The notes under the pieces are model-generated. The model searched no databases. It was not told the DNA's origin and saw only the letters and a list, made by a program, of their open reading frames with translations. A stretch of DNA of 64,000 nucleotides from an uncultured bacterium (lineage in GTDB: Bacteria; Omnitrophota; Omnitrophia; Omnitrophales; Aquincolibacteriaceae), in contig CAYLPP010000011.1 in NCBI GenBank assembly GCA_964385615.1, positions 19,508 through 83,507 on the forward strand, read 5' to 3'. Both the position numbers and the translations under genes were made by a program. Below are positions 21,227 through 52,721 of this stretch, one piece after another. Within the stretch, counting starts at the first letter, position 1, and every line of letters begins with the position of its first letter.

Positions 21227-21326
21227 TCAGTCGATCCGCTTCCTTTTTAAACAAAATCAGAGTCTAAAGCGGGCATAGTATAGCGGAAGGCTAGAGGGAT
21301 ATAAACAGCAATTTTTGAGGAAAAAA

Positions 21327-21965: not shown

Positions 21966-22118
21966 ACCGACCTCTGTTGCCCCTCGCTGGAAGGGGGTGA
22001 AGTTTGTGTACAATAAAAAACTAACAGATGGTTTTATGCTTTGCAATATCCGGGCGTTATTTTACTGAAAAAAGTTTCAGAATCCAGTCAAAATCTTAAA
22101 AAAACGATCTGAAAAGGG

Positions 22119-22349: not shown

Positions 22350-22351
22350 GA

Positions 22352-29234: not shown

Positions 29235-29395
29235 ATAGCCAGTACCCAGAAATTTTTCCTGCGAGGAATAAACCTTGATCAGATCGCCGGTTTTATAGTC
29301 GTCATCAATCCGGTCGATGGCGCCTGAAAAAACCCAGGGGTGGAAACCTTCAAGCGGTTTTTCTTTCTCAGGCTTGAGGTAACAGCGGATGGTCT

Positions 29396-30457: not shown

Positions 30458-31816
30458 TTAGATTTTCTGCCTTATTTCTTTGATCGTGTTTTCGATCAAA
30501 TTACGGATTTCCGTCAGGCGTTTCTCACTGGTGGCTTCAAACCGGGTGACAAGCACAGGCTGTGTGTTGGAAGCGCGGACCAATCCCCAGCCGTCCGGGA
30601 ACTCAACGCGGGCGCCGTCAATATCCACCACTTTGTACTGAGCCTTCAGCGTCTGCACGGCTTTTTTAATCACGTCAAACTTCACTTCATCCGGACACTC
30701 AATGCGGATTTCAGCCGTAGCGTAAGTGTTGGGAACATCCTTCAGAAGTTCCGGGATGGTTTTATTTTCACGGTCCAGAATCTCAAGCATCCGGCAGGCC
30801 GAATAAATCCCGCTGTCAAAACCAAACCAGCGGTGTTTAAAAAAGATATGCCCGCTCATTTCGCCCGCCAGCAAAGCGCCTTCTTCTTTCATCTTGGCTT
30901 TGATCAGCGAGTGACCTGTCTTCCACATAATTCCTTTTCCGCCGTGCTTTTCAATATCCTGAAAAAGAAGGTTGGAGCATTTCACGTCGGCCAGAATCGT
31001 CGCACCCGGATTTTCTTTGAGAATCGGGCGGGAATAAAGAATCATCATTTTATCGCCGGGAATAATATTGCCCAGATGGTCAATCACGCCGCAGCGGTCG
31101 CCGTCACCGTCAAACGCAAGACCGATGTCGGCTTTATTTTTCTTCACAGCTTCAATACAGTCGTGCAGATTTTCAGGCTCGCTGGGATCCGCGGGGTGAT
31201 TCGGGAAACGTCCGTCCGGTTCGGTGTAAAGCTTAATGACCTCATGCCCAAATTTCTCGAAAAGCTTCGGAGCGATCAAGCCGGTCATCCCGTTACCGCA
31301 GTCCACCACAATCTTGAGCTTACGTTTGAACTGAAATCCTTTAAACAGGTACTCAAAATAATCAGGAACAATCTCACGGGTGGTGAGTTTTCCTTCACCC
31401 TTGAGAAAATCCTGCTTCTGAATCATGGAAAGGAGTGTTTGAATCTGCGGGCCATGAAGGCTGGAAGTCCCGATATTCATTTTCAGACCGTTCTGATCGG
31501 GCGGATTGTGCGAACCGGTGATCATGATACCGCCGTCCGTGGCGAAATAATGCACGGCGAAATAAAGACACGGCGTGGTGGTCAAACCCAGGTCAGTCAC
31601 ATGGAGGCCGGTGGAAAGAATGCCCTTGATCAGCGCGTCATGAATGCGGGGCGAACTGACACGGCAGTCACGGCCGATCACAATATGATATTTCTTATCA
31701 CGCTTAAGGAAAGTTCCGTAAGCCTTCCCGATATTTTCGACCACTTCGCTGGTCAAATCACGTTCAGCTACGCCGCGGATGTCATACTCACGAAAAATTG
31801 AAATCGGAAGGTTCAT
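30458..31816 (-). CDS. manB: Phosphomannomutase / phosphoglucomutase
   Basis: 452 aa with phosphoserine loop TGSHNPP, Mg loop FDGDGDR and a sugar-binding loop. Directly abuts manC. Confidence 0.8.
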   Translation of the reverse strand: MNLPISIFREYDIRGVAERDLTSEVVENIGKAYGTFLKRDKKYHIVIGRDCRVSSPRIHDALIKGILSTGLHVTDLGLTTTPCLYFAVHYFATDGGIMITGSHNPPDQNGLKMNIGTSSLHGPQIQTLLSMIQKQDFLKGEGKLTTREIVPDYFEYLFKGFQFKRKLKIVVDCGNGMTGLIAPKLFEKFGHEVIKLYTEPDGRFPNHPADPSEPENLHDCIEAVKKNKADIGLAFDGDGDRCGVIDHLGNIIPGDKMMILYSRPILKENPGATILADVKCSNLLFQDIEKHGGKGIMWKTGHSLIKAKMKEEGALLAGEMSGHIFFKHRWFGFDSGIYSACRMLEILDRENKTIPELLKDVPNTYATAEIRIECPDEVKFDVIKKAVQTLKAQYKVVDIDGARVEFPDGWGLVRASNTQPVLVTRFEATSEKRLTEIRNLIENTIKEIRQKI

Positions 31817-31963
31817 GTGAATTTGGTCTCTTAATTTTAATTAGAAAAATTAGGAAAGAGGACTTGGCTCTTTCGAGAAGATCCTCAAATTCCTTTATTT
31901 TGAAATGCGTTCATCGGACGCGGCATTCCTTAAGCCGCGCCGATGACGTACCAATCACAGGAT

Positions 31964-32048
31964 TGGTGCGAGCGAGAGGACTTGAACCTCCAACCCTTGC
32001 GGGACATGATCCTTAGTCATGCGCGTATGCCAATTCCGCCACGCTCGC
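31964..32048 (-). tRNA. tRNA-Leu (class II, long variable arm); anticodon reads AAG by my manual fold
   Basis: Reverse complement GCGAGCGTGGCGGAATTGGCATACGCGCATGACTAAGGATCATGTCCCGCAAGGGTTGGAGGTTCAAGTCCTCTCGCTCGCACCA. 7-bp acceptor stem, D-loop with GG, anticodon stem CATGA/TCATG with loop CTAAGGA, variable-arm hairpin CCCGCAAGGG, T-loop TTCAAGT, encoded CCA. Confidence 0.75.
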
Positions 32049-32061
32049 GTAAAAATTAAAA

Positions 32062-32415
32062 CTATTTTCCGGACTTAAGCCGCTGCTTCTCTTTTTCAAG
32101 AGCAACTTCGACTTGCGCCAGCTCCACATCCAACTTTTGAGTTTCCTCGATCAACGTCTTGATCTCAGCGTCATTCACGGAGATTTCCTCACCCTTCCGC
32201 TGGGCTTTTTCATAAATCTTACTGCCAAGCTGGGCGAATTTCTTACTCACGCGGTGCTCCAGGCCGGCCTTTTCAATCAAAAGCTTGGTTACCAGGGCCG
32301 CTTCTCCCGCTTTTTCGGAAACAGTCTTGACGGACTGCTTCGCGGTTTCAAAAGCACTGTTAATGGCTTTTTCCGCTTTTTCGTACAACGAATCATTTTC
32401 CATATTATTTTCCAT
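32062..32415 (-). CDS. Hypothetical coiled-coil protein (phasin-like composition)
   Basis: 117 aa, Lys/Glu/Ala-rich amphipathic helices. No catalytic motif. Confidence 0.35.
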   Translation of the reverse strand: MENNMENDSLYEKAEKAINSAFETAKQSVKTVSEKAGEAALVTKLLIEKAGLEHRVSKKFAQLGSKIYEKAQRKGEEISVNDAEIKTLIEETQKLDVELAQVEVALEKEKQRLKSGK

Positions 32416-33430
32416 TCACCACGTTTTCCGGATTTCCTTCCAGAAAACGCCGTATGTTACCCACCGTTGTATCAAGGATGCGTGTCACCGCTTCCTTTGA
32501 ATAAAATGCCATGTGAGGCGTGTAAATAACGTTCCCGCGGCTTAACAAGTCCTGATTTTTCTTCATCAGGTCTTTTTTTTCCGCGTCCTGAGTGTTTAAA
32601 AACCGTTTCTCCTCGAGAATCAGCTCTTCACCTTCGAGCACATCCAGCCCCGCTCCGGAGAAAATACCTTCGTTCAGACCTTTAAGCAGGGCTTCGGTTT
32701 CAACCAGACCGCCCCGCGCGGTATTCACCAGGACTGAACCGCGCTTTATTTTAGACAGGTTAGCCTGATTAATCAAATGATGAGTTGCCTTCATATACGG
32801 GACATGAAGTGAAAGAATATCCGCTTTGCCCAGCAATTCATCGAAGGGCGCGTATTTGAACCCCATGACTTCCGCGAGAAAGTGATTGGGCTTTACATCA
32901 AAGGCAAGCACTTCCATACCGAATCCCCGTGCCATGCGGATAACGTGAAGACCGATATGACCCGTTCCAATCACGCCGATTGTTTTGCCGTAAAGGTCAA
33001 AACCCATCAGGCCGGTCAGAGAAAAGTCATTATCACGGATTTTGTAATACGCTTTGCGCAGACTGCGCGAAAGCGAAAGGATCAGCGCGAAGGTGTGTTC
33101 GGCCACAGTGTTTTCACCGTAGACAGGCACATTGGAAACCTTGATGCCCTTGTCCGCGGCCGCTTTAGGATCAATATGATCAAACCCGGTGGACCGGGTC
33201 GCGATGAGTTTCAAATCCGGAAATAAGGCTATCTCTTTGGCGCCGATCCGTGAATTCACAAAAGGCGAAAGCACGGTGACTCCGGGATATTTTTTTTTCA
33301 AATCCTGCACATTCTCATTTTCAAAGATCAAGCTGGCGCCTTGAAACCGCGAGGCAAGGTAATCCGCCTGCCATTTTTCCTGCATTTCCGCAAACAGAAT
33401 CCTGTCGGAAGTAAGAAGCGCCTCATTCAT
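32405..33430 (-). CDS. D-isomer-specific 2-hydroxyacid dehydrogenase (NAD-binding)
   Basis: 341 aa. GVIGTGHIGLHV Rossmann motif and a catalytic His/Glu/Arg arrangement typical of D-2-HDH (LVNTARGGLV). Confidence 0.75.
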   Translation of the reverse strand: MNEALLTSDRILFAEMQEKWQADYLASRFQGASLIFENENVQDLKKKYPGVTVLSPFVNSRIGAKEIALFPDLKLIATRSTGFDHIDPKAAADKGIKVSNVPVYGENTVAEHTFALILSLSRSLRKAYYKIRDNDFSLTGLMGFDLYGKTIGVIGTGHIGLHVIRMARGFGMEVLAFDVKPNHFLAEVMGFKYAPFDELLGKADILSLHVPYMKATHHLINQANLSKIKRGSVLVNTARGGLVETEALLKGLNEGIFSGAGLDVLEGEELILEEKRFLNTQDAEKKDLMKKNQDLLSRGNVIYTPHMAFYSKEAVTRILDTTVGNIRRFLEGNPENVVNGK

Positions 33431-33481: not shown

Positions 33482-36400
33482 TTAGGCCGAAGCGGCGGTC
33501 CGCAGGGCCTGCATCCGGTAACGGCTGAGCTCTTGAATCGCCGCGGCCATCGCTGAGAGGGCTTCAGCGCTTTTAACGCGCTCACGGTCTTCACGGCCGT
33601 CCACTTGCGCCAGAAAATCCACGGTTTTCTTGGAAAGAGCCACAAGCCCGGCCGTTAAAACCCTGGCCGGAAGATTCTCGCCGTCCTTCGCGCCATAATC
33701 CAGTTCCTGCCCGTCGCCATAGCGGTCGGAAAGCAGCATCCGGATATTTTCAGGCACGGAGCCGATGACCAGGTCAGGCGATTGATCCAGACGGCCTTGC
33801 ATTGACTGATGATAAAAACTGACACTGCCTCCCGCCTTCTCAATTTCCAGAATGTCACGCTTGTTATGGTCAGCAACTTTGAGCAGATCGCGGACACGCT
33901 GAGGCACCTTCACTTGAATCACAATATTTTTATTTATTGAAACCGCGTCATGCGCGGCCTGGAGAAGTGCGCGGAGCGCTTCTTCCGCTTTCCCGCCCAA
34001 CTGAGCCAGATCCTGCTCGGAAATTTGATACCTCACATAAACCGGCTTATCGACCGCCCGAATAGCCTCCGCGTATTCCATCCCGGCTTTTAAAATCTCC
34101 GCGTCTTCTTTGAGCGCTTCCGACTCAACCGCGGCTTGCACTTCCGGAATAAACGCGTCAAGATTTCCGGCGGCAGCCCGGACAATTCCTGGAATATCCA
34201 GACTCCCCGGACTGTTCGTCCGGAACGCGTTTACGAGATTTTCAGCCGCCAGCCTCAATTCAGAGCGGGGAGTATCCGCTTTTGAAGACTGGGGTCTTAT
34301 CTCAACCTGAATAATACGCGCCTTGTCTTCTTTTAAATCTTTTTCCGTGTCCGCGTAAACAAGCCAGACGCGTGAAACTTCACTTAAAGGAAACTGTTTT
34401 AGGTCATGCCAGTTTATATCCGTGGATTTCCGGTATTTCCGCATAACAGCTTCCGGAATTTCCAAAAGCACCCCCAGTGTTTTTGAAAGGTAATTTTCAC
34501 CGTAGGGCGAATCGGTATACGTATGAAGATGCGCTTCGCTCAAATCCGCGGTCCACCGTGTTGGGGCGCGGCCAATGTTCTTAACTTTTCCGGAATTGAT
34601 CCAATCTTCAAGTACTTCTTTACCGTAAACTCCCCGGTAATAAAACCCGGTCCGGAAATCTTCAGGGAAGGCTTCGCTAAATTTACGTACAGGAGCCTGC
34701 CGGGCAATCCGGAGCGCGCCGGAGTAGGAACGAATGCCCGGTAAACGCACTTCAGAACGGGCAGGCTTGTCGGTTTTGGGGTTGGGGCCGGTTTTTTTCC
34801 TGGGAATGAATTTCTTAAAGCGTTTGTCCAGCGCCTCAAACGCAACACGGCTTTTTTGAATACTTTGAATGCTGGATTGCGGATGCGCCGCGAAAGCTTC
34901 ATGAACCGGCCCGGCAGCCTGTCTTTTTTTATTGGCCCGCAAAAATACGCGGGCCTGCGCAAGATAATCCCGGATGAAAAATTTATCCTGAGAACCCAAG
35001 GTCGAATCGTTTAAAAGCTGTTCGGCTGCATCAATCTCGTTTAGAAGCTGCTGTTTTTCCGAAATTTTCTTCGCTCTGACTTCTGAGCGGGAAGCCGGTT
35101 GATAGTTATCTAAATTAACCTCGATCATCCGGATCTTCTGCGCGGAATGCCGGAGAAGCGCGTTTTCCAGCTCCTCAGGGCTTGAGATCGTATAAATCGC
35201 GGTGGGTTCATAGACAGGGCCTTCGTCTGACGGATAAAACGCTATTCTGGTAACTGCCCGCGGATTCTCCTGAAGCATTCGTCTTTGGAAATTCTGAGCG
35301 CCGATGTCCTTGTGAATTCCCCCCAAACTCGAGGACCCGATAACCAGGTACTGAACTTTAAGCTTGAGGCGGGTAAAAAGCTCATCCCTGAGAATGGAGC
35401 CGTATTTTTTTCGGCGCAAATCTTCTCCAGCTCCCGCGTCAAAAACATAGATTCCATTTCCAAAAGCGCGGTTCGACCCACTGTTAACCTGATAAGCATA
35501 CGCTGCCAAAGGAAATCCGCGAAAACGCTGTTCATCAGTCACCTCAAAACCTTCCGGAAAATCTTTACGAAAAAGAATGAGCGCGTCTTCTTTTTTTCCG
35601 TTCCACCGGGTGTAGAGTTCATCACTCCACATACGGCGGAGCAGCCAATCCACAGGGCCGCGAATCTCATCCGGCCCCAATTCGGAGAACAAACGGAAAG
35701 AGACATTCTCAACGCGCGCCTCGGAACGCCCCCAGACGGGCACCGCCTTCTTTAAAGCATGAAGAGCGTCATTCGCATCCCGGGTTCCGTCAAAAAAATC
35801 ATTTACAAGATTCATATGGGGCTTAAAAGCCTTCATCAAATGAAGCAAGTTCACTTGCCGGCGAATCGGCTCAAGACCGTTTGTGTATTCCTGAAACAAA
35901 CGCAAGCGGTCCGGGTCAAAACCGCCCTGCCGCAGGAACTCGGGATTACCGCTGGTATGAAACCGATAAACCGCATCGCGGCCCGCCTGAGCGCCGATTT
36001 TCGAGAAAATCTCGTTAATGAAAAACTGGTTTTTGAACGGAAGCAAAACGCCAAAATGCCGCCGGATGAAGTCGGTAGCCAGATATTCCGTGGTTCCTTC
36101 CCTCAATATCCAGAGAAGTCCATTCTGCGTAATTTCACCCAAAGCTTCCGCGAACCCATCGGCCTGTTCAATATGATAACGCTCATGCGCGTAGGTTCTC
36201 GCCATATTCAGCGTTTCAAAGTCTTCACGAATCCACAGATGCACAAATGTCAGAATCTCTCCCTCGGGCAGCTTGATTTGCTGCATGAAACCAAAAGGTG
36301 TTTCAGACAACTCCAACGCTTTCAAGATAGGATCGATCCAGTAACCCGTCGCAGAAACAGGCAGAACGCTCAGGTTCTCAGGGTCGCGGTCCCCCGGCAT

Positions 36401-39400
36401 TCTGAAATAAAAAGTCCTGTCCGGCACAGCCAGCTCGCCGGCAGCATCGATTTTGGCGATCGCTTCACGAAGATTCGCATCAGGCTCAGCCGCGAAAAGT
36501 TTGTTTTCTTCTTCGACAAACCTGATTAAATCTTCTTTCGTCTTCACCTGCTTCATTTTTTCAAACCGCCCGCGCCAGTAAGCAAAAAGCTCGTTTTTAT
36601 CCGCTGTCCCGTAAATTCTTCTGAGTTCCGCAGCGCGTTCGGGGCTTTCTTCGGAGAATGTCTGATTCCAGAGTTTCTCCAGACCTGTGATATTTTTTTC
36701 CGCCTTAGCAATCATATCAACCCAGGGTTTGACTAACAAGTCACGCACTTCAGAGCGGGGCGTCGTAAAAAACGATTCTTGATCCATCCGGCTTACCGCC
36801 CAGTCCGGTACATCCGCTAAATCATAAAACCCGTAGAGAGTCCCTTGCTTGTAAAAAAAATATTGCTCCTCTTGAGGACGGCCCGTAAGCCAGGTCCGGA
36901 ATTCCGGAGTCACGGTCACTGCTTGCAGGGCACCCCGGAGAATATCAAACCCATCTATGTATTCTCCAATATTCCATCCGGCAATTTCGTCGATATCTTC
37001 GGCGCTCTTAATTTCCTCAGGAAGTTTTCCGGAATAAGCTTTTAGAGTTTGAGCAAGTATTGAAAACTCTTCCCTGAGCCGGGCTTCTTTTTCCCTATTC
37101 TTGTATGGATTATTTCCCCACTTTTCCCGGCCCGGAATCACGTATCCCTTTTTGTGGTATTTCGCGGACGCGAGTTCCGGTTTAGTCCCGTCGCCGGAAG
37201 GGTAAATAACGCCTTCCATCCATTGCCGTTCCAGCCTGAGGCTGGGGGTACCAGGAGGTCTTGTCATTGAAAACGGGAAATGCATGGCGGGAAAACTGCT
37301 GTAAAGGATGCCGTTATCATCCAGGGCTTTGAGAAAAGTATCCATCAAAAATCCTCGACTGGATTCTTCAAGGTACTGAAAAACCTGCCGGAAGAAAATG
37401 AAGTCCGGGTGAAGCTTTTCCAACCCAAGAGCCTGCACGCTTTCGCGCTGATTAAAATTGAGAACTGCCAGCTGAAAGAGAGCGTGTTTTTCCGGCTTCA
37501 GGCGGTAACCACGGGGCGTTTTGTCGAAATATTTCGCGGTCGGAATTCCGGAAAGACGGGCTTCCCGAATATCCTGAGGATCATAATAAATCTCATTGGC
37601 CATGAATTTTTCCATCAAAGAAGCTTGCCCTCCAAGCCCAGCGACCAAAACTTTCGCTTCAATTCCCTTGAACCGTTCAAGAGCGGAAAGCACTTCAATG
37701 GGTTCCTGAAAAAACCCGGGACCGCCGACAAAAGCGCGGAAAGCCTGACGCTCTTTTCTTTTTCCGGGCGCGCGGAGTCTGGTTTCACGGCGAAAATCTC
37801 CCAGATAGTCGGGTTCACGCAGAGCTTCAGAACCTGAATACCGCCCGAAGCGTCCCATAGACTGCCATGCGGGTACCAACAGCCGAAGAAAACGCTCCGT
37901 GGGAGAATTCTCCTGCCCGAAATTTTTAAGCTGGGCCGGCCAAAGAGACGGCGTATCCCCAAGTATTTCAGTAATTTCATCCCAGTAAGTGCGCACGAAA
38001 TTCTTCAGCGTAATGGTTTCCACTTCATTCTGATTACTTGAAAAAATCCGGTTTTGACGGACGTAAGTTTCGGGAAGTTTTTTAATAAATGTCAGGATCA
38101 CGGCCGCCGCCTTGTTAACCTCGAGGTCAAAATGGGCCGGCACGGCGCGGACTTCAGAACGCGCGCTCTCTTGTTTCGCTTTGTAAAGAATCGACGTGAG
38201 CTTCGCAACCAGCAGATCACGCTTCTGGGGCACCACCCTTTTACCCTTCTTCAGCAAGTCCGCGGCACCCGCCTTGATCTGTCCTTGATCCAGCGGAAGA
38301 GCGGCGATTTTCAAAAGTTTTTCACTGATTGTGGACCAATCAATAAGATCATCCTCTTGGTCGGAAATCCCCCGGCTGATAAGCCCGCGCATTTTTTTGG
38401 CCAGCTCCCGGGCCGCCTCCGCTTGAGGGCTGAAAGACTTCAGGTCTACGGCTTGCGGCGATTGAGGCTTCTGCTTTGCAATCAACGATTCAAGATCCGC
38501 CAGGTATCCCGCGAACATTTCTTCGAGAAAATCCCGCGCCCCCGCCCGGCGATGCGCTAATTCCGGATCCGTTTGAACCATTTTAAGATTTTCCTGCAGA
38601 ATGGTTTTCAAGTTCCGGAGATCGTTTTCCGGAACACGAAGACGCAGGATCTCGCTCAGGGAAAGGTTATTGAGTTCATAAACCCATCTCAATAAGCCGG
38701 CTTCTTTATCAGAAATCGCCGGGAAGAGAGATTCGGGCACCGCCTCCGATTCGGACTGCGTTTCTCCCCCAAGAACCACGCCGTAAGCGATCGGAGCACC
38801 TTTCGAGTCATAAAAAACGGTCACTTCGGCGGCCAAACCGTGACGCCGGAAAAAAGCTTTAACCTCATCGGCCGTCGTGAACAGCCCGGCAAGAAATTTT
38901 TCCAGATTGTAGATATCGAGATAAATTCGAAGCGTATCCCCGTAAATGGCGCCGATTGCCTGCCCAGCCGCCGGAGTCTGAAGAAGCGCGATCATTCTTT
39001 CAACATGTTCAATATACTTCTCCTGCCCCCCTAGGGCATAAGGGTCGCGTGGAAGAGCAGCCATTTTCCGCCGAACTCCCGCAAGCCCCTGGAAACTACC
39101 CGCGTGGACCATGGAAATCAGCTCGTGATAAATATCCAGCATCCGGTAATCCAGCATCAGGGCGGAGCGGTCATTGACCGTAACCTGGGATTGCGGGTGA
39201 TGCAGCTGAAGCACCGCTTTACCTGATTTCATGATCCGTTTTAGTTCTTCAACGGAACGCTCCTTATCGGTATAGTCCAGCGCGTACATGGAGATCACCG
39301 CATCCATGGAATGGTCCGCGAAACCGGTATTTTCGGCGGACGCCTGTTTAAAGGTGATCCCCTGGACCGGCTCTTTGGGAACCACCGGGTCCAGCGCGGT

Positions 39401-42400
39401 TAAATCCAAATCCCTGCGGCGCTCGGCAAGTTTGCGGGTTACATACAAATCCCCGGCACCCAAATCCAGAACCTTCGGTTTCTCCCCCGCCCTGGCGGGA
39501 AGCAGGCGATCCAGCCGCTGATAAAGAAATTCAAGGAGTGCCGTCGGGTAATGATTTCCCCAGGAACCCTGACGCTCCGTTTGCGAAGCATCAAGAGTTT
39601 CCCAATGCATTTTCCAGTATTGCACGGACAATTCGTCATTGCTCATTCCCGGGCCCTGAATATTCGGGGCTATAACGCGCATGAAACTCGCCGCGTCAAG
39701 GCCTCTTGCCAATGGCCGCGCGGTATTAATATCCGTTCTTCCGTTTTGAGCGGCAACTTCACGCGAAACCCACGAGTTCTTGAGCTGGCGCAAAAGCAGA
39801 GCGGTCCGGGGATCCGGAACCTCATTATCACGAACGGGTTCAAGCCGGTTAACCAGCCGATAGAAACCAGCCAGGGCTGTTGAATCCGGAAAAACTCCGT
39901 TTTGCTCCATCCAGCTTTTAATTTCCACGGTGCCGATCGACTTTGGGAAAGTGACCGCCCTCAGCTCGGAACGCCCCCTGGCGGAGAGAGCCTCTCGAAT
40001 GCCTTCGTCAATTTCATTCGTATCGTAAGGAAGCTCCGTGTCTTCACGGCGGATCAGAGACAGCACGACTTCTTTAAGGAAGGCGGGGTCATACCCCTTG
40101 AATCCCGGTTCATTAATTTTCTTCACACCCTCCCGGTTAACCAAAATAAGCTGGCCGAACTCAACGCTGAAAGCTTCCGGGTTCAATCCTTCTGTGGACC
40201 CCGCGGCCAAGCCATAAAGGGTAAATCCTTTATCCTGAAAATCTAAAATAAGATTCGTTAATTCCCCGGCTGTTTTTTTAAGTTTTCCGGGCTCCACATT
40301 CTTAAAAAGATGCTCCTTCAATGAGTTCCCATAAGAAAAAAGCCGGTGATTGTCACTGGTTCCTTTGTTGACCATAGGATTAAAAATATCATTTTGATAC
40401 GAAACCCAACGGTCAGAACCGTCTTTAAAAACTACGTAATACTTGTAACCGCCATCCACGGCTTTAACCGGAATCGATGCCCGCCAAACTCCATCTTCAA
40501 AAGTCATCGGGAAACCGGGAGACGCCCACCCATTGAAATCGCCCCGGACATAGACCGCGGAAATTTCTTCATTTTGAATTGGAGGCCGCGGCTCGAAAAT
40601 AAAAGCGCTGGCCGGTTTGTAAGGCGGCTTAGGCACTTTGGAAATAAAAGTCAAAAAGTAAGGGGTGTCTTCCCTGACGGCTTTCAGAATCTCCGGGAGG
40701 CGGTCCCATTCAGCAGGCAGACTGCCGTCTGAAACATTCACATTATCATTAATTAAAACCTGCGCGCCATTCGCGGGGTTCAGAAAGAAACGAAGCATTT
40801 CTTCGGTATCGCCGGAAGCCAGCAGGCTTTGGATTTGCGCCCGCTTTTCAACGGGAAACTGCTCCATCGGAACAGTCCAGAAAATAAAAAAACTCTGAGG
40901 CGTCAAGACCGCCTGAGTTGCCGGATCAAAAATGCGGTAAAGCCCCGCTAACGAGAAAATAAATTGGTGCCCCAGGGATGAAACGCCAACCTGGGTCGTC
41001 ACTGTGAGCTGGCGCCCGTCCTTTTCAGGAAGATTTCTTTGTTTAAGCGGTTGATAAGCCACCGTTGGAGGCCAGACACCCGGCTCATTTTTCGAAAGAG
41101 GAAACCCCATACTGTTAACAGTAAAATCTTTCTTGCGGTAGCTCTCAATCCTGTAACCCGACCTGACAGCCTTCGAAGCCGGATGAATATCCTCCGGCCA
41201 TATCGGAATCTGTTCAGGCGCGTAAGTTCGGTAATAGCCTGAGGCATCTACGATTGTTCCCTTTTCCGTTCTGGCTACGGCGTGCTGGAGTTCCATTTCA
41301 TAATCCACCGGACTTGGACTCCGGGGCAAACCGCGCAAACGGTCTTCCAGAGTTTCCCAGCTTGAAACATCTAAAAGATCGCCGGTCTCAACCGGACGAA
41401 AAGAAAACCGGTTAGGAATTTTAATGCGGTGGACGGAAGCCTTAATCCCGTGCGCGTTTAAAACCCGCGCGGACACGCATGATCCGACCGTACACTCGCC
41501 CCATTCGGCTTCCTCGCCAGGAACTCCCTGGATAGTCAGCTCATATTCATCCTCAATATCCAAGCCGAAAATATCTCTAGCCGGACTCCATGCGTAAGTA
41601 CCCGTTTCGATCAGATGGTAAAGTCCGTAGGTTTTGATTTGAGCGCTCATAAGCGGGTAGAGTTCAAGAGCCCTGCGGAGATCTTCTTCCTTTTCAACGG
41701 GTGAGGTTTCGGCCCTAACCTCAGACCGCGCTTCAGGAACAGACGCGATACGCTCCAATAAAAGTTCCATCCGGCCTACTTGATCTGCGGTCGGATTGCT
41801 TTTCTTCAAATACTCCGTGACCTGCTGTTTAAAACGCCGTTTCACCCAGACAACGAAAGTCCATTCGGTTGAAACACCGCTCGACCGGGATTTCACTTTT
41901 ACGGGACTACGGTCAAATAAATGCCCGGAGGCCCGCAGTGCTTCTAGCGAGGAAACAGCTTCTGCCGCGGATTGCCCGAATACCTCAACAGGCGGCACGA
42001 AAATTGAAAACTCTCCGCCAAGAAGGGAGTTCCAAAGCGCCATTCTCCGTAGAATTTCCTTGATATTTCCTTCAAGCGTTTCGGGGTCAGCGGGAGTTTC
42101 ATCTTCCGTGAGTTCCGTTTCTGAGCGGAGTTCAGAACGCCCGTGGGTTTCGAAATTTCCCGAAGTTTCCGGGGAGCGATATTGAAAAGTTTCGAAAATG
42201 GTCACCAGGAGAACAACTGTTACGGATAATCCCATCAGGCCAAGTCCGCCCCAGATCAAAAGATCACCGGGAGAAACCAGGTAATGGTTTGTCAGAGGAA
42301 TGTAGTCGGCAACGCCGTGAAACAGGAATGCATCAACCACGTTCATCAGCACTCCAGAAAAATAAATCAAGAGACCTGCGGTAAAAATCCGCTGAAAAAT

Positions 42401-44821
42401 TCTTTCGGCTTTCGCGATAAAGGAAAACCGGAATGCCGCCTGCGGTTTGTAATACCAATTGAAAAGAGCCATTTTTAATTTGCGGATAACCGCCGATCCA
42501 ATTCTGAACCCCAGATAAACCGCCAGCCAGCTTCCCGGCCCTGTATATAAAACCCGGCTCAGACGCCCCTGGTCCGCAACGAAATGGAAAATAAAATTCC
42601 GGGGCGTATTCCTGTTTTCCTCTGTTCCCTGAACCAGAATTTTGAGACCGTCAGGATGGTTATGAGCCATCCCCTCATAGGCGCGCTGTGCCTCCGGCAC
42701 TTGTTCAGGAAGATCCACCCCCACCAGCACCCGGCTTATATTGGAAAGAAAGAAATGAATAACAATTTGATTGAGCAGAATTAAAACAAAAACGGCGCTG
42801 AGATAAAGAGCGGCAAGTTTCAGACCTTTCCAAGCTCTTGCCCGAAAATTTTCCGGAGATTCCGGCAATAACTTAACCTTCTTGACGGCTTCTTCTCTAT
42901 CGGAACCGGCAGCGCGGACTTCGGAACGCGCTCTGCGCGCGGGCACTTCTTGATTCATCCAGGCCGAAAGCTGAAGCACGGCGGGACCGCCCGTTTCCGT
43001 CACAATGTTGACGGGTTTTAAAAGGGCCGCAATGTTTGATTCCGTGAGTTTTCCGGAAGACTCAAGTCCCCGCAGGCCTTCCAGAAACCGGCTGATTTTT
43101 TCCTGCCAGGGATACCTGGAAATTTTCTTTTCTTCCGGCTTCAGAACTTCGTCTAGAAACCGGGTATAACTCCACGCTTCCGAAACTCTTTCTTGAGCGA
43201 TCAGATCACGGATCAGCTGATCGCGCCATTCTTTCAGATCCCCCGACTCGAGAAGCCGGTCACGGACAGAACGGATGAACGCGGGATAAAGAAAAATACG
43301 CCCATTTTCCGGATGAAAGTAATTTTTCCAGGAAACCTCACGGTTCATCTGCGCGAGATAGGCTGCCTGACCGGATAAGTCATGGATTTCAGGAGTGACG
43401 AGCAGGTAGGAAATGCCGGCCTGGCGGAAAAGACGCATTAATTCCTGAGAGTGAAAACCTCCGGCAATCATCATAATTTCCGGATGCTGATCCGTCATGA
43501 GCCGTTGAATCTTCTCAAAAAAGACGCCGTCTCTTTTTTCCGCATTCCGGTAAAATTCGGAAAAGACACGAAGGCTTCCTGCAAGAGCAGGTAGATTCCG
43601 GGCTTTAAGCTGGATCCATTCATCCCGGCTCAACTCCAGCTTGGCCAGTTTTTCGCAGAGGCGTAAACCCCGGCTTTTGCGGTCCGCTTCTTTTTCTTCC
43701 GGAGTTTTTAAAAGCCGCCTTTTAACGGTGTTTGAATAAATTTTAAACTCTCTGAAAAAATCCGTTCCTTCAATCGCCTGAATTTTTCGGTGGTTGCGCA
43801 AGGATTCCCGCAATTCCGGAGAAAACCGGGCATGATAAGTTTCCAGAAAAACCGCGAATTCGACTGCTGAAAGGCGGGAGGTTTGAAAGGCCTGATATTT
43901 GTCATGAAAAACGGCGGGCGCGGGTCCGGATTTCAAAATCCTTTCGGCTTCAGATTTAACTTCAGCCTGAATCTGAACGGAGTCTTTCTCATCACGCCTG
44001 ATTTCTTTCAGAACAGACGCCAGAGCCGAATCCGGACGCGGTTCATTTTCCTGAGCGAGCAGGAGCATCACCCGCGAGAAATCCGTTTCTCCTTTTTCAA
44101 ATTCAGTCAGCGCCCGGTCCACCGCCAGAAGGCGCGGAGAAAAAACGGTTTGTTTCTGTTTATTGAGGCGGGTTTGTAATTTATAAATCCGGGGAAGAAT
44201 TTCCTTCTGCCGTTCAAGCGCCTGCCGGTAAAGATCTAAGCCTTCCTGATACAGGCTCCAGTCCTCCACGCCAATAAATTCACCGGGAGATTTATTTAAG
44301 ATAGCCGCCGCCGCGGCTCCGGACAGCTCCCCTTTTTCAGTGTAACTTTCAAGCGCCTTCTCCAACGCACTGTGGTCCGGGAAACTTCTTAGAATTCCCG
44401 CGTCCAGTTTTTCGGAAGCCCCTTCCACCGCCGTTGTCCGGATTTGGTATTCGGTCTGAAAGTAATCGATTATTTTTTGGATATTGCGCTGACCATCCGC
44501 GATCGCGTGAGCGTCCTGAACTAAAACAACCGCCCGCCCGTTTTTTTCACCTCGGAAAAATTCCTGAATCTTCCCGGTTTCATTGGGTAATTCAATTTCA
44601 GAAAGGGTTTTAAAAAGATTTTTCTTCGCGGGTAAAAAATTTTTCTCTTCCGCACACACCCGGGGCGGAACTGGCGGAGTCAAAATAAAAACGACCGCAA
44701 GAAAAGCGGAAATCAGTTTAAAGTAAAACTTGAGGTATCTGCTTGTCATGTAATTGGTTAGACCACAAGAATACCCTATAGCCATCCTGGAGGCAAAAGG
44801 TTGCTTATAGTGATATAGCAA
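33482..44821 (-). CDS. Giant (~3,750 aa) multidomain membrane-anchored protein of unknown function: signal peptide, helical N-terminal region, 4-TM bundle, CBM48/E-set-like module, embedded class-I SAM methyltransferase domain, HExxH motif, ten RSE[VLA]R motifs
   Basis: Uninterrupted 11,340-nt ORF on the minus strand; only short ORFs on the opposite strand. The more likely start is MTSRYLKFYFKLISAFLAVVFIL (ATG at 44749), giving a signal peptide with a VCA|EE cleavage-like site. Internal motifs read directly: VLDLGAGD...DAVISMYALDY (MTase motifs I and post-I), YVRGDFNGWASPGF...YKYYVVFKDG (CBM48-like), AHERYH. Codon usage and GC match the flanking genes. Confidence 0.85.
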   Translation of the reverse strand: MLYHYKQPFASRMAIGYSCGLTNYMTSRYLKFYFKLISAFLAVVFILTPPVPPRVCAEEKNFLPAKKNLFKTLSEIELPNETGKIQEFFRGEKNGRAVVLVQDAHAIADGQRNIQKIIDYFQTEYQIRTTAVEGASEKLDAGILRSFPDHSALEKALESYTEKGELSGAAAAAILNKSPGEFIGVEDWSLYQEGLDLYRQALERQKEILPRIYKLQTRLNKQKQTVFSPRLLAVDRALTEFEKGETDFSRVMLLLAQENEPRPDSALASVLKEIRRDEKDSVQIQAEVKSEAERILKSGPAPAVFHDKYQAFQTSRLSAVEFAVFLETYHARFSPELRESLRNHRKIQAIEGTDFFREFKIYSNTVKRRLLKTPEEKEADRKSRGLRLCEKLAKLELSRDEWIQLKARNLPALAGSLRVFSEFYRNAEKRDGVFFEKIQRLMTDQHPEIMMIAGGFHSQELMRLFRQAGISYLLVTPEIHDLSGQAAYLAQMNREVSWKNYFHPENGRIFLYPAFIRSVRDRLLESGDLKEWRDQLIRDLIAQERVSEAWSYTRFLDEVLKPEEKKISRYPWQEKISRFLEGLRGLESSGKLTESNIAALLKPVNIVTETGGPAVLQLSAWMNQEVPARRARSEVRAAGSDREEAVKKVKLLPESPENFRARAWKGLKLAALYLSAVFVLILLNQIVIHFFLSNISRVLVGVDLPEQVPEAQRAYEGMAHNHPDGLKILVQGTEENRNTPRNFIFHFVADQGRLSRVLYTGPGSWLAVYLGFRIGSAVIRKLKMALFNWYYKPQAAFRFSFIAKAERIFQRIFTAGLLIYFSGVLMNVVDAFLFHGVADYIPLTNHYLVSPGDLLIWGGLGLMGLSVTVVLLVTIFETFQYRSPETSGNFETHGRSELRSETELTEDETPADPETLEGNIKEILRRMALWNSLLGGEFSIFVPPVEVFGQSAAEAVSSLEALRASGHLFDRSPVKVKSRSSGVSTEWTFVVWVKRRFKQQVTEYLKKSNPTADQVGRMELLLERIASVPEARSEVRAETSPVEKEEDLRRALELYPLMSAQIKTYGLYHLIETGTYAWSPARDIFGLDIEDEYELTIQGVPGEEAEWGECTVGSCVSARVLNAHGIKASVHRIKIPNRFSFRPVETGDLLDVSSWETLEDRLRGLPRSPSPVDYEMELQHAVARTEKGTIVDASGYYRTYAPEQIPIWPEDIHPASKAVRSGYRIESYRKKDFTVNSMGFPLSKNEPGVWPPTVAYQPLKQRNLPEKDGRQLTVTTQVGVSSLGHQFIFSLAGLYRIFDPATQAVLTPQSFFIFWTVPMEQFPVEKRAQIQSLLASGDTEEMLRFFLNPANGAQVLINDNVNVSDGSLPAEWDRLPEILKAVREDTPYFLTFISKVPKPPYKPASAFIFEPRPPIQNEEISAVYVRGDFNGWASPGFPMTFEDGVWRASIPVKAVDGGYKYYVVFKDGSDRWVSYQNDIFNPMVNKGTSDNHRLFSYGNSLKEHLFKNVEPGKLKKTAGELTNLILDFQDKGFTLYGLAAGSTEGLNPEAFSVEFGQLILVNREGVKKINEPGFKGYDPAFLKEVVLSLIRREDTELPYDTNEIDEGIREALSARGRSELRAVTFPKSIGTVEIKSWMEQNGVFPDSTALAGFYRLVNRLEPVRDNEVPDPRTALLLRQLKNSWVSREVAAQNGRTDINTARPLARGLDAASFMRVIAPNIQGPGMSNDELSVQYWKMHWETLDASQTERQGSWGNHYPTALLEFLYQRLDRLLPARAGEKPKVLDLGAGDLYVTRKLAERRRDLDLTALDPVVPKEPVQGITFKQASAENTGFADHSMDAVISMYALDYTDKERSVEELKRIMKSGKAVLQLHHPQSQVTVNDRSALMLDYRMLDIYHELISMVHAGSFQGLAGVRRKMAALPRDPYALGGQEKYIEHVERMIALLQTPAAGQAIGAIYGDTLRIYLDIYNLEKFLAGLFTTADEVKAFFRRHGLAAEVTVFYDSKGAPIAYGVVLGGETQSESEAVPESLFPAISDKEAGLLRWVYELNNLSLSEILRLRVPENDLRNLKTILQENLKMVQTDPELAHRRAGARDFLEEMFAGYLADLESLIAKQKPQSPQAVDLKSFSPQAEAARELAKKMRGLISRGISDQEDDLIDWSTISEKLLKIAALPLDQGQIKAGAADLLKKGKRVVPQKRDLLVAKLTSILYKAKQESARSEVRAVPAHFDLEVNKAAAVILTFIKKLPETYVRQNRIFSSNQNEVETITLKNFVRTYWDEITEILGDTPSLWPAQLKNFGQENSPTERFLRLLVPAWQSMGRFGRYSGSEALREPDYLGDFRRETRLRAPGKRKERQAFRAFVGGPGFFQEPIEVLSALERFKGIEAKVLVAGLGGQASLMEKFMANEIYYDPQDIREARLSGIPTAKYFDKTPRGYRLKPEKHALFQLAVLNFNQRESVQALGLEKLHPDFIFFRQVFQYLEESSRGFLMDTFLKALDDNGILYSSFPAMHFPFSMTRPPGTPSLRLERQWMEGVIYPSGDGTKPELASAKYHKKGYVIPGREKWGNNPYKNREKEARLREEFSILAQTLKAYSGKLPEEIKSAEDIDEIAGWNIGEYIDGFDILRGALQAVTVTPEFRTWLTGRPQEEQYFFYKQGTLYGFYDLADVPDWAVSRMDQESFFTTPRSEVRDLLVKPWVDMIAKAEKNITGLEKLWNQTFSEESPERAAELRRIYGTADKNELFAYWRGRFEKMKQVKTKEDLIRFVEEENKLFAAEPDANLREAIAKIDAAGELAVPDRTFYFRMPGDRDPENLSVLPVSATGYWIDPILKALELSETPFGFMQQIKLPEGEILTFVHLWIREDFETLNMARTYAHERYHIEQADGFAEALGEITQNGLLWILREGTTEYLATDFIRRHFGVLLPFKNQFFINEIFSKIGAQAGRDAVYRFHTSGNPEFLRQGGFDPDRLRLFQEYTNGLEPIRRQVNLLHLMKAFKPHMNLVNDFFDGTRDANDALHALKKAVPVWGRSEARVENVSFRLFSELGPDEIRGPVDWLLRRMWSDELYTRWNGKKEDALILFRKDFPEGFEVTDEQRFRGFPLAAYAYQVNSGSNRAFGNGIYVFDAGAGEDLRRKKYGSILRDELFTRLKLKVQYLVIGSSSLGGIHKDIGAQNFQRRMLQENPRAVTRIAFYPSDEGPVYEPTAIYTISSPEELENALLRHSAQKIRMIEVNLDNYQPASRSEVRAKKISEKQQLLNEIDAAEQLLNDSTLGSQDKFFIRDYLAQARVFLRANKKRQAAGPVHEAFAAHPQSSIQSIQKSRVAFEALDKRFKKFIPRKKTGPNPKTDKPARSEVRLPGIRSYSGALRIARQAPVRKFSEAFPEDFRTGFYYRGVYGKEVLEDWINSGKVKNIGRAPTRWTADLSEAHLHTYTDSPYGENYLSKTLGVLLEIPEAVMRKYRKSTDINWHDLKQFPLSEVSRVWLVYADTEKDLKEDKARIIQVEIRPQSSKADTPRSELRLAAENLVNAFRTNSPGSLDIPGIVRAAAGNLDAFIPEVQAAVESEALKEDAEILKAGMEYAEAIRAVDKPVYVRYQISEQDLAQLGGKAEEALRALLQAAHDAVSINKNIVIQVKVPQRVRDLLKVADHNKRDILEIEKAGGSVSFYHQSMQGRLDQSPDLVIGSVPENIRMLLSDRYGDGQELDYGAKDGENLPARVLTAGLVALSKKTVDFLAQVDGREDRERVKSAEALSAMAAAIQELSRYRMQALRTAASA

Positions 44822-44844: not shown

Positions 44845-45780
44845 TTAAATCCCGGAAACAGTCAGAATTTCGAGGACCTGCTTAATTCCTGCGGTTAAAT
44901 CCCCTTGGTAGGAAAACCCTTCCTTTTCAAGCCTCAAGGGAGAAACCCCGTAAGAAAAATCATTCATGGCGGGAGAATCCACTTCCTGAATTTCAAGTGA
45001 AGTGACATTTTTTTTGAGAGCGCTTAAAATCTGCCGTACTGTTGCATTCAAAGTCACCGCGTTGTAAACCTGTCCGTCAAAAAGCCTCTTCGCCGTCAAA
45101 AATAAAATCACTTCAACCGCGTCGGTCAAATCCAGATAAGCGCGGGTTTGATCCAGCGCGGTCCGCCAAACCGTCACAGGCTTATGCTCCGCCGCTTGTT
45201 TGCAGAATTTATTAACCGCGGTATTAAAACGCATTCCGGGCGAAGGGCCGAAAACCGTCCCAAAACGGGCGATTGAAAACCGGAGTTTTTTAAAAATTTC
45301 AGAGCGAAGCAGGTTTTCCGCTTTAAGTTTGGAGTCCGCGTACGGACTCTGAGGAATGAGTTCCTCCGGGGGACCGTCTTCAAAAGCCGTTCCGTTTTCT
45401 TTTCCGTAAACGCTCGTGGTGGACGGAAAAAAAAGCGCGGCGCCGGATTCAAGACAGGCTTCAGCAACACGCGCAGTTCCCAAAATATTAACACGCTCCG
45501 TTTCTTCCGGATTTTTAAAGCTTTCGGCGGGGTCGCTGAGCGCGGCCAGATGAATCACAGTGTCTGCCCCTTTAAAAAAAGGCCCCAGATCCAAATCCAG
45601 AATATCGCCTTCCGTGAAAAAATACCGGCCTTCCTTCGGCAGATTTTCCAAAGAGGCGCGATGCCCGGAGGGATCACGGTCAATCATCACAATTTCACAG
45701 CCGGGAAACCGGGCTGGAATTTCACGGATCAGCCTGGAACCGATATACCCCAGAGCCCCCGTCACAACGATCTTTTTCAT
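44845..45780 (-). CDS. NAD-dependent epimerase/dehydratase (extended SDR, UDP-sugar 4-epimerase-like)
   Basis: 311 aa. N-terminal VVTGALGYIGSRL glycine-rich NAD motif, YxxxK region. Confidence 0.75.
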   Translation of the reverse strand: MKKIVVTGALGYIGSRLIREIPARFPGCEIVMIDRDPSGHRASLENLPKEGRYFFTEGDILDLDLGPFFKGADTVIHLAALSDPAESFKNPEETERVNILGTARVAEACLESGAALFFPSTTSVYGKENGTAFEDGPPEELIPQSPYADSKLKAENLLRSEIFKKLRFSIARFGTVFGPSPGMRFNTAVNKFCKQAAEHKPVTVWRTALDQTRAYLDLTDAVEVILFLTAKRLFDGQVYNAVTLNATVRQILSALKKNVTSLEIQEVDSPAMNDFSYGVSPLRLEKEGFSYQGDLTAGIKQVLEILTVSGI

Positions 45781-46754
45781 TTCTTAGCCCCGGCTCCGCT
45801 CACAGGTAAATCCATTACATAAAGGGTTTTTCGAAGACCAGATTCCAGATCATACTCCGGCTTCCAGCCCGTCAAACCGCGAAGTTTCTCAGATGTAAAC
45901 ACGGCGTCTTCCACTTCAATTTTTCGCCTCTGATCGGGCCACTGGGTGAATTCCACCCGCCCTTTTCCAATAACACGGACTACCGTCTGTGCGATTTCGC
46001 GGACTGAAAAATGCCAGGGGCCGGTGGCCAGAAACACGCCTCCGCGTAACGCTTCGTGCCCGGCTGAGCGCAAAAGAATCTCCGCGGCATCTTCAGCGTA
46101 GAGGACATTACGAAGTTGGTTCCCCGTCCCAAAAATCTTTAGAGGCTGATCTTGAACCGCTAAACCAATGAAGTAATTGATAAAACCAAAATCGGGGCTC
46201 GTTTTTCCGTAGGGTCCGTACAAATTCGCGAAACGCAGAGTGACCGTATCCAGCCCATACAGACTGGAATAAATCCGGTAATATTTTTCCGCCGCGCCTT
46301 TGTTAGCCGAATAAATGCCCGCGGGTTTTTCCGGATGCTCTTCATCCGCTTCTCCAAACACTTTTCCGGCAGCGGTCGTCGTTGAAGCATAAACCACGGA
46401 CGCGCGCGGATTAAAAAGACGCACCGCTTCGAGCAGTTTCAAACTGCCGAGAACATTGATCTCAGCGCAGTGAAGCGGATCTTGAATCGACAGCGTGTGC
46501 GAAGACTGAGCCGCGAGATTAAAAATCACGTCATGCCCTGGAACCATTTCCGCGAGCAGTTTTTCATCACGGATATCTCCCCTTACAAAACGGATCGCGT
46601 CACTGACTTCCTCAAGGGATTGCATTGAAGACATAAAACGGGGATCGAGAGAATCCAGAACGGTCACTTCCACCCCCGGCTCAGCAAGACAGCGGCGGAC
46701 CAGATGCGCACCCAGGAAACCGGCTCCTCCTAAAATCAAAACTTTGGATGCCAT
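45777..46754 (-). CDS. NAD-dependent epimerase/dehydratase (NDP-sugar 4,6-dehydratase/decarboxylase-like)
   Basis: 325 aa with LILGGAGFLGAHLV motif and a YSANKGAAE catalytic YxxxK. 4-nt overlap with the downstream gene. Confidence 0.75.
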   Translation of the reverse strand: MASKVLILGGAGFLGAHLVRRCLAEPGVEVTVLDSLDPRFMSSMQSLEEVSDAIRFVRGDIRDEKLLAEMVPGHDVIFNLAAQSSHTLSIQDPLHCAEINVLGSLKLLEAVRLFNPRASVVYASTTTAAGKVFGEADEEHPEKPAGIYSANKGAAEKYYRIYSSLYGLDTVTLRFANLYGPYGKTSPDFGFINYFIGLAVQDQPLKIFGTGNQLRNVLYAEDAAEILLRSAGHEALRGGVFLATGPWHFSVREIAQTVVRVIGKGRVEFTQWPDQRRKIEVEDAVFTSEKLRGLTGWKPEYDLESGLRKTLYVMDLPVSGAGAKK

Positions 46755-46756
46755 AT

Positions 46757-51111: not shown

Positions 51112-51439
51112 ATGCATACCCGATTTTAGATGATTAACTCTAAAAAACAAAGCAGGAATCAGAATACGGAAGGAAGCGGGCTTTTGATTTAATCTTACAG
51201 AAATGGCTGCCCGACCGCCACTCCCAGACGACCTACTTTCAGCATTGAGATACCAATTCTGCTGTATCGCATTCGTAAGGGTGAATGGAAGATTAAGAGC
51301 GCCGGAAGCGAAGATCAAGCGAAACAATACAAAGAACGTAAGATTGTGTCAAAAACTGTCCGAGCGCCCTATCCCTCATGGCAGGAGGAAATGCTACCAA
51401 AAAGGATTCCCTGAGTCCAAACTTTTAAAATTAAACCCG

Positions 51440-51468: not shown

Positions 51469-51513
51469 TCCTTCATTAAATACTTTTCGCAATGATAAAG
51501 GGCATGAATAAAC

Positions 51514-52659: not shown

Positions 52660-52721
52660 AATTCCTCCGAGGCTACTTTGGATTTTTCTTAGTTAAGAAC
52701 TCGCACAAGTAGTGCGAGTTT

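Follow-up and report, generated by a model that had tools for sequence, protein, structure and literature searches.

A giant Omnitrophota reading frame punctuated by a five-residue motif: a candidate cellular polyprotein

Introduction

A 64,000-nucleotide stretch of contig CAYLPP010000011.1 from an uncultured Omnitrophota bacterium (hereafter the window) carries an open reading frame (ORF) of 11.3 kb at positions 33482-44821. The giant genes of this phylum are known to be puzzling. In one of two preprints on the giant proteins of this phylum (bioRxiv 10.1101/2023.11.21.568195; 10.64898/2026.06.07.730766), the cleavage points are described as unknown and the N-terminal regions as without identifiable domains, and the other has no mention of cleavage, motifs or polyproteins. 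Is the product of such a frame one enzyme of many domains, or a set of proteins in one chain? A preliminary description, made from the letters of the window, took the product for a mosaic membrane protein with an unusual multi-domain enzyme architecture and no recognisable overall family. Here we report that it almost certainly belongs to a family with a modular architecture punctuated by a short motif. We propose, with confidence evenly balanced for and against, that the giant protein would be a cellular polyprotein cut after the last Arg of the motif, with the N-terminal domain (N-domain) as the candidate peptidase. The multi-domain architecture is then better read as separate proteins strung in one frame.

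Results and discussion

The motif and the modules of the giant protein

The sequence RSE[VLA]R is present ten times in the giant ORF (Table 1). From the composition of the protein, 0.11 copies of RSE.R are expected (Poisson P ~7e-17), and the maximum in 20,000 shuffles was three. The ten motifs divide the chain into 11 modules of 110-631 amino acid residues (aa). The codons vary among the motif copies, and the last Arg is encoded by both CGN and AGR, which indicates selection on the protein. A DNA-level repeat was ruled out, as the codons of the copies are unlike. According to the AlphaFold2 (AF2) models, the linker ahead of motif 1 has a predicted local distance difference test score (pLDDT) below 50, and motif 10 is the first turn of a confident helix (pLDDT ~82).

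Elsewhere in the window RSE.R is found only twice, in other frames. Both matches are RSETR, their frames (7143-8348, minus strand; 19415-19726, plus strand) overlap longer ORFs of the opposite strand, and both are probably due to chance.

The family and its punctuation

An exhaustive phmmer search for homologues of the N-domain gave 7,087 cluster representatives at E<=1e-3, of which 646 remain at E<=1e-30. The protein therefore does have a recognisable family, which counts at least these 7,087 representatives. The C-terminal module and the -[AS]A end are likewise shared. The N-domain match is always located at target residues ~40-620, in proteins 510 to 7,984 aa long. When the first 881 aa were used as the query, Omnitrophota proteins were obtained with identities of 23-47%; the first ~600 aa are common to them, the sequences diverge completely after that, and RSExR often stands where the similarity stops. 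Identity to the listed relatives is 21-51%. A scan with one genome per species gave 126 loci, of which 80 (L001-L080) were kept with 10-kb flanks. These are from Omnitrophota metagenome-assembled genomes (MAGs) wherever named, and every named source or locus of the family is Omnitrophota. The N-domain family is Omnitrophota-specific, and the giant ORF is ordinary for this phylum in being long and mosaic. Genomes often have 4-6 paralogues, and most family frames exceed the 10-kb flank.

The statistics of the motif were calculated for 139 family representatives (471,341 aa). RSE.R occurs 742 times, 60-fold over expectation, and is the only enriched gapped 5-mer with many copies per protein. In the 80 loci the frequency is 1.32 per 1,000 aa in the family ORFs against 0.027 expected, and the other hits are almost all in adjacent long ORFs. 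At least one RSE.R is present in 125 of the 139 relatives; the remaining 14 use RAE.R, KSE.R or RTE.R, which gives the general form [RK][SAT]ExR. At position 4 the residue is hydrophobic or small. The flanks carry little information, with small residues before the motif and small or acidic ones after it. The first motif lies just past the N-domain (median aa 664), the median spacing is 342 aa (interquartile range 214-534), and up to 18 junctions are present per protein. Autoproteolysis by a Ser nucleophile, or a phosphosite, was ruled out, as whole proteins have Ala or Thr in place of Ser.

The motifs coincide with the boundaries of exchanged segments. When different family members are compared by BLAST, the starts and ends of internal homology blocks fall within 5-10 aa of a motif at about ten times the rate for randomised positions. 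Modules 4, 6 and 11 of the giant protein match the 5,015-aa protein P0030 at residues 3264-3840, 2258-2711 and 4754-5014, each match extending from one motif to the next, and the order of modules 4 and 6 is reversed between the two proteins. The modules are units shuffled between family members. Homologue searches with modules 11 and 4 returned nothing; since phmmer gives clear relatives, a word-index limit is suspected.

The C-terminus is -AA or -SA in 119 of the 139 representatives, and the giant protein ends ...TAASA. The 20 representatives without this end are probably truncated. Many tails consist of a motif copy and three further residues, for example ARAEVRKAA. C-terminal module 11 is modelled by AF2 as an alpha/beta fold without a known relative, and is terminal in at least 21 family proteins.

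Tandem family members occur. At L012 (19968-21950) and at four other loci, a divergent second N-domain paralogue (IYIQDAHDSLEAQ...) is located directly downstream of a family gene. In some relatives, long family frames are broken by single in-frame stops (four TAG and one TAA; Table 1), some of them within the N-domain. Pseudogenisation of paralogues, errors of assembly or read-through could account for them.

Integrity of the reading frame

The ORF is located on the minus strand, which the preliminary description had not given, and is one uninterrupted frame of 3,779 codons followed by a stop at 33482-33484. The earliest candidate start is the TTG at 44821. The likely start is the ATG at 44785 (M13), as the resulting 3,767-aa product is identical to P0029 of the public collection (an NCBI record). 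The alternative is the ATG at 44749 (M25), where the closest homologue starts in the alignment.

A chimeric assembly, or ordinary genes run together through sequencing errors, could mimic a giant gene; the source sequence is of the metagenome type, and single in-frame stops are present in some related loci. However, the 11.3 kb are free of stops, the GC content along the gene is even (0.49-0.53), and an identical protein stands in a public record. The 80 related loci come from dozens of independent MAGs, and dozens of these loci have frames of more than 3,000 aa with the same architecture. The junctions hold a conserved peptide motif, not remnants of stops, intergenic regions or starts. We regard an artefact as extremely improbable. 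The single 11.3-kb frame and its assignment to the giant genes of an uncultivated diderm lineage, here Omnitrophota, were confirmed, and the even GC content, the dozens of similar loci and the three modules that match P0030 end to end give no sign of a chimeric join, which the preliminary description had wished to see excluded.

Module starts resemble free N-termini

Several observations concern the residues directly past the motif. Met is enriched two-fold solely at the first of these residues (32 of 940, against ~17 expected). In P0035, a tandem pair of CsrA domains (residues 4236-4400) begins at the Met directly past KSEAR (KSEAR/MLVLERKIGEEVVIGD); we take the MLVLERKIGEEVVIGD start to be the native N-terminus of CsrA. 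In P0044 an adenylate kinase module (residues 2018-2240) begins past RSEMR. The cargo of the relatives includes adenylate kinase, a receiver domain, CsrA and HEAT repeats; the first three are normally separate proteins. Canonical twin-arginine translocation (Tat) signals stand right past a motif in P0041, P0060, P0082, P0086 and P0126, a lipoprotein signal with LAG/C in P0116, and Sec-like signals in P0135 and P0038. The onset of a hydrophobic segment within 10 residues of a motif is three times commoner than at random positions. The Met enrichment, the CsrA start, the Tat, lipobox and Sec signals, the hydrophobic onsets and the stand-alone cargo together suggest that each module is at present, or was until recently, a precursor in its own right, with a free N-terminus required directly behind the last Arg of the motif.

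Cleavage would also resolve a conflict of topology. A K/R-rich segment precedes the first transmembrane (TM) segment of module 2 and points to the cytoplasm, yet the exported N-domain implies the periplasm. From these sequence features, we give slightly better than even prospects to the motif being a proteolytic cleavage site.

The N-domain as a candidate hydrolase and peptidase

The preliminary description had assigned a ~570-aa helical segment to the N-terminal part. The AF2 model of the N-domain (pLDDT 84.9) instead contains an alpha/beta core with a ~250-aa helical insertion, like a hydrolase domain of the TIKI/TraB/Ere type. The residues D103-x-H105, E133, R430 and G454-G-F-H457 are invariant (D103, H105, E133 and GGFH457 in 27 sequences), and E133 is located exactly 28 residues past H105. 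In Bcr135 (H85/E113) and RRSP (H3902/E3930) a Glu is likewise found 28 residues past the first His, and the pattern of the superfamily is 2His/2Glu (PMC6254334). By its sequence pattern the N-domain fits this constellation, with Asp in place of Glu as the first acid. In the Foldseek search of the PDB no hit was significant (E>0.7), and the same entries recur among the top non-significant hits. No match was found for aa 25-631 in Pfam at E<=10 or in NCBIfam, and the PDB search with the N-domain profile was empty. From the pattern of residues, the N-domain is predicted to be an active TIKI/TraB/Ere-type hydrolase, which we consider probable.

At L081 the N-domain is encoded on its own gene (P0013, 870 aa, 10001-12613), which has one RAEVR and ends ...QQPAP, not -[AS]A. 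A second gene (12775-22613), 160 nt downstream, encodes more than 3,279 aa without an N-domain, has TM segments at its start, and contains 12 motifs of the RAExR type (one of them RSELR, the other 11 RAExR). The separation into two genes indicates that the N-domain and the motif-bearing chain are functionally linked. In the 80 loci, no other gene is conserved beside the family members. As the sole constant partner of the motif-bearing chains, the N-domain is the candidate for the processing protease, a role we assign to it only tentatively and with more doubt than belief.

Weighing of the alternatives

The codons of the motif raise the question of whether it is read in the nucleic acid. In 272 RSE.R motifs counted in the family ORFs of L001-L080 and in the ORF of the window, CGY encodes Arg1 in 83% and TCN encodes Ser2 in 97%; in Arg-Ser pairs outside the motifs the corresponding shares are 41% and 57%. 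The bias is limited to the first two codons; Glu3 and Arg5 follow the background usage. The CGY preference is synonymous and is thus not explained by protein-level selection, whereas the serine codon family can be locked by purifying selection. The motif might then be an mRNA processing site, or a place of codon-dependent ribosomal chain end and restart. However, the third codon positions are still variable, the variants RAExR, KSExR and RTExR preserve the amino-acid character and not the nucleotides, and position 4 is conserved as a class of residues. A core like that of Shine-Dalgarno is absent, Glu being mostly GAA, and Met follows after only 3.4% of the motifs. We therefore consider a role at the level of the nucleic acid very unlikely; the bias may hint at a part of translation in a polyprotein system. 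For the last two reasons, an internal Shine-Dalgarno sequence with re-initiation was ruled out.

Two further alternatives keep the motif at the protein level. The chain could be an uncleaved scaffold, one membrane-anchored multi-enzyme chain of the envelope, in which the motif is a conserved part of the inter-domain linkers that, for instance, caps a helix or docks a common partner. Current preprints treat the long proteins of Omnitrophota as intact membrane-anchored assemblies, and the position of motif 10 in a helix turn suits a cap. A purely structural cap would not, however, be expected to place the same 5-mer between unrelated folds. The residues that flank the motif are nearly uninformative. 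The order of the modules is freely permuted, and the motif stands directly before the initiator-Met N-terminus of CsrA and before Tat, lipobox and Sec signals that need a free N-terminus. We regard the scaffold as doubtful. The chain could also be a secreted multi-effector protein like the MARTX toxins, exported whole via Sec and cut outside the cytoplasm, with modules that act on the envelope or in prey or host. Omnitrophota are believed to live as predators or in dependence on a host, with giant proteins as surface effectors (bioRxiv 10.1101/2023.11.21.568195; 10.64898/2026.06.07.730766), and this view suits secretion. Most members begin with a Sec-type signal, 48 of the 139 relatives have no TM-like segment past the signal peptide, the fold class of the N-domain is probably that of the MARTX effector RRSP, and enzymes dependent on S-adenosylmethionine (SAM) would be sensible in the cytoplasm of prey. 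Against this, the CsrA, adenylate kinase and receiver cargo is housekeeping-like, the internal Tat signals function from the cytoplasm only, the K/R-rich segment ahead of the first TM segment of module 2 fits the cytoplasm, and the gene here lies within a sugar-nucleotide operon. Neither glycine-rich RTX repeats nor a cysteine protease domain were found in the whole protein (Pfam and NCBIfam, E<=1), and membership of the MARTX toxins was thus ruled out. Secretion as a multi-effector seems unlikely to us.

The cellular polyprotein also meets difficulties. Everything on the cutting is inferential, a point that equally favours the scaffold. The exported N-domain would be on the side of the membrane opposite to the cytoplasmic cleavage that the internal Tat and lipoprotein signals imply. 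Members of the TIKI superfamily include esterases and haem binders, not peptidases alone. Motif 10 stands at the start of its confident helix, and the motif could thus have a structural role. Most motifs lack a signal-like start behind them (4.3% have one, compared with 2.0% of random positions), and the bias of the first two motif codons goes beyond protein-level selection.

Proposed processing scheme

The chain consists of a signal peptide, the ~570-aa hydrolase-like N-domain, variable and unrelated modules of enzyme size, and the C-terminal module ending -[A/S]A, and [RK][SAT]ExR (RSE[VLA]R here) is present at every module junction. In the proposed scheme, this motif would be cut, most likely behind its last Arg. 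The released products would be a TIKI-like hydrolase, an LspA-like protein with four TM segments, two methyltransferases, CBM48-like and zincin-like modules, and several uncharacterised proteins, and each would be sorted by its own signals. The N-domain would cut its own chain, or would act in trans where it is separately encoded. By analogy with what is generally known of such tails, the -[A/S]A end might recruit a tail-recognising protease, as an alternative to the N-domain. For the phylum as a whole, we suggest with some reserve, and at somewhat less than even confidence, that Omnitrophota run a non-viral polyprotein system, in which operon-like groups of unrelated proteins (enzymes, regulators like CsrA, and exported proteins that bring Tat, Sec or lipoprotein signals of their own) are made as one chain with a TIKI-fold leader peptidase and split at [RK][SAT]ExR.

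Individual modules

The features of the giant ORF are listed in Table 1. The signal-like N-terminus has a basic start and a hydrophobic core of 12-13 residues before VCA/EE. AxA-type signals are present in most homologues, and the signal peptide of the preliminary description is thus supported. By hydropathy, TM-like segments are confined to aa 30-48, 674-704, 808-834 and 855-873, with none beyond aa 894. The last three of these, with a weaker hydrophobic stretch near aa 772-790 (read by eye), agree with the bundle of four TM segments previously placed at aa ~650-880. The name membrane protein is true only by way of this one 263-aa module.

Module 2 shows a weak resemblance to signal peptidase II. 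The Pfam match to Peptidase_A8 is weak (E=0.49, aa 806-849), as is the pairwise BLASTP match to E. coli LspA over the preceding collinear stretch (E=0.013). By eye, NVVD and SPGD occupy the places of the two catalytic Asp motifs of LspA. No Pfam match was found for a module of P0111 that is related to module 2. An LspA-like protein is a lead only, drawn from these alignments.

The class-I SAM methyltransferase of module 5 was confirmed by Methyltransf_11 of Pfam (aa 1785-1867, E=5.7e-9), whose 36.9 bits exceed the gathering cut-off of 21.2; LDLGAGD runs from aa 1785. The CheR-like second methyltransferase (aa 2334-2507) reaches 24.7 bits against a cut-off of 27. For the CBM48 module claimed earlier, a match of module 4 to CBM_48 exists (aa 1422-1473, E=3e-4), but at 21.5 bits it is below the cut-off of 22.4; a weak PDB match to the N-terminal region of GlgB was also seen (E=0.013). 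The HExxH sequence reported before is present in module 7 as HERYH, although Pfam and PDB sequence searches gave no support for a zincin; a gluzincin is possible from the motif. PDB sequence searches with modules 2, 3-4, 6, 7 and 8-10 gave nothing significant, and for module 3 (aa 895-1031) and modules 7-10 neither Pfam nor PDB sequence searches returned a significant match. The mosaic make-up, with most of the sequence lacking a curated match, agrees with what had been described.

Table 1. Features of the giant ORF in the window, and in-frame stops in related loci. Residues are numbered from the first codon of the ORF.
Feature	Residues (aa)	Nucleotides	Strand	Remarks
Whole ORF		33482-44821	minus	3,779 codons + stop; probable start 44785 (M13) or 44749 (M25)
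Sec-type signal-peptide-like N-terminus	25-57	44651-44749	minus	MTSRYLKFYFK, hydrophobic core, VCA/EE; hydropathy
N-domain, family-defining	58-~620	42962-44650	minus	alpha/beta core + ~250-aa helical insertion
Motif 1, RSEVR	632-636	42914-42928	minus	low-confidence linker behind the N-domain
Module 2	632-894 incl. motif	42140-42913	minus	all internal TM segments; weak LspA resemblance
Motif 2, RSELR	895	42125-42139	minus
Motif 3, RSEVR	1032	41714-41728	minus
Module 4	1032-1616	39974-41713	minus	end-to-end homologue of P0030 residues 3264-3840
CBM48-like stretch, module 4	1422-1473	40403-40558	minus	borderline Pfam match
Motif 4, RSELR	1617	39959-39973	minus
Class-I SAM methyltransferase core, module 5	1785-1867	39221-39469	minus	motif I = LDLGAGD
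Motif 5, RSEVR	2221	38147-38161	minus
CheR-like methyltransferase region, module 6	2334-2507	37301-37822	minus	Pfam score below cut-off
Motif 6, RSEVR	2689	36743-36757	minus
HERYH (HExxH), module 7	2879	36173-36187	minus	followed by ...LREGTTEY
Motif 7, RSEAR	3032	35714-35728	minus
Motif 8, RSEVR	3245	35075-35089	minus
Motif 9, RSEVR	3355	34745-34759	minus
Motif 10, RSELR	3519	34253-34267	minus	first residues of the C-terminal module
C-terminal module 11, conserved	3519-3779 with motif	33485-34252	minus	ends ...RTAASA-COOH
In-frame stops in relatives		L001 4258-4260; L021 1021-1023; L041 1277-1279; L070 5523-5525; L072 2273-2275

Genomic context

The giant gene is located in a co-directional, tightly spaced minus-strand cluster of the sugar-nucleotide/deoxy-sugar type (28221-33430 and 44845-51327), with gaps of 24-60 nt upstream and 51 nt downstream of the ORF. 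Upstream are three NAD-dependent sugar epimerase/dehydratases, a sugar C-methyltransferase with a zinc-binding N-domain, a methyltransferase and an amine oxidase. Downstream are a 2-hydroxyacid dehydrogenase, a tRNA-Leu, a phosphomannomutase and a mannose-1-phosphate guanylyltransferase (ManC). As the neighbours at other loci are unlike these, little weight is placed on the sugar-nucleotide context.

The tRNA-Leu is the sole tRNA of the window (31964-32048, minus strand, anticodon AAG) and lies between the phosphomannomutase and 2-hydroxyacid dehydrogenase genes. A leucine tRNA with A34 is unusual for bacteria. At 51500-64000 the GC content falls from ~0.51 to ~0.43, starting just past a YhcG-type PDDEXK nuclease gene (51514-52659, minus strand). 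This part encodes a fatty-acid desaturase, a phosphatase of the haloacid dehalogenase (HAD) type, an alpha/beta hydrolase, a class-III aminotransferase and three ORFs without a Pfam match, and may be an acquired or variable island.

Significance and comparison with known systems

The motif at the module boundaries provides concrete candidate cut sites in the giant proteins of Omnitrophota and a rule for slicing them in silico into foldable units, and the N-domain provides a named protease candidate in which particular residues can be mutated. Neither of the two Omnitrophota preprints mentions RSExR punctuation, a TIKI-like N-domain or an -[AS]A terminus, and full-text searches of open-access papers and bioRxiv found no description of the motif. 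The combination of a TIKI-like leader, [RK][SAT]ExR at the junctions and an -[A/S]A end is not described in this searched literature. The statistics are very strong, and the combination turns an open question into a bench experiment. If the polyprotein reading is true, a bacterial phylum would routinely encode sets of proteins as polyproteins, and very long metagenomic ORFs should be annotated as strings of proteins, not as single multifunctional enzymes. This would be a previously unrecognised organisation of bacterial gene expression, and would explain the giant genes of Omnitrophota.

The giant protein resembles the Archaeovorins in several respects. These giant proteins come from the same phylum, have a signal peptide and/or TM segments and a patchwork of methyltransferases and other enzymes amid unannotated sequence, and are suspected to be cleaved. 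However, they exceed 30,000 aa (West-Roberts et al.), against 3,779 aa here, and only the methyltransferase part of their domain set is present here. The C39 and S8 peptidases proposed in the Archaeovorin preprints were not detected in the giant protein.

The MARTX toxins are likewise very long and modular. Their ends are conserved, their internal enzyme modules can be exchanged and are freed by inter-module cleavage, and one of their effectors, RRSP, has the TIKI fold. They use type I secretion and have glycine-rich repeats and a cysteine protease domain, activated by inositol phosphate, which cleaves behind Leu. The giant protein differs in its Sec-type signal and five-residue motif, and in the housekeeping-like cargo of its relatives.

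In the polyproteins of picorna-, poty-, nido- and alphaviruses, unrelated proteins stand in one frame with a short consensus site, and the protease is in the same chain. The present family, whose cleavage is proposed from its sequences, is in contrast chromosomal and bacterial, with several paralogues per genome and a protease candidate of a different fold class. In polymorphic toxins, VENN (CdiA) and DPxGL (Rhs) mark the boundary between the conserved and exchangeable parts, and the Rhs motif is a cleavage site. These toxins have one junction each and follow a toxin-immunity logic, whereas the giant-protein family has up to 18 junctions and immunity genes were not noticed.

The N-domain itself is closest to the superfamily of TIKI/TraB/PrgY, erythromycin esterase, ChaN, HopBA1 and RRSP, with which it shares acid-x-His, the Glu at +28 and a second His after a beta-strand. 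Many members of this superfamily act outside the cytoplasm, as the N-domain with its signal peptide might. It differs from them in having D-x-H for the E-x-H of RRSP, in the ~250-aa helical insertion and the lack of a match to a curated model, and in being always fused to, or encoded beside, a motif-punctuated cargo chain.

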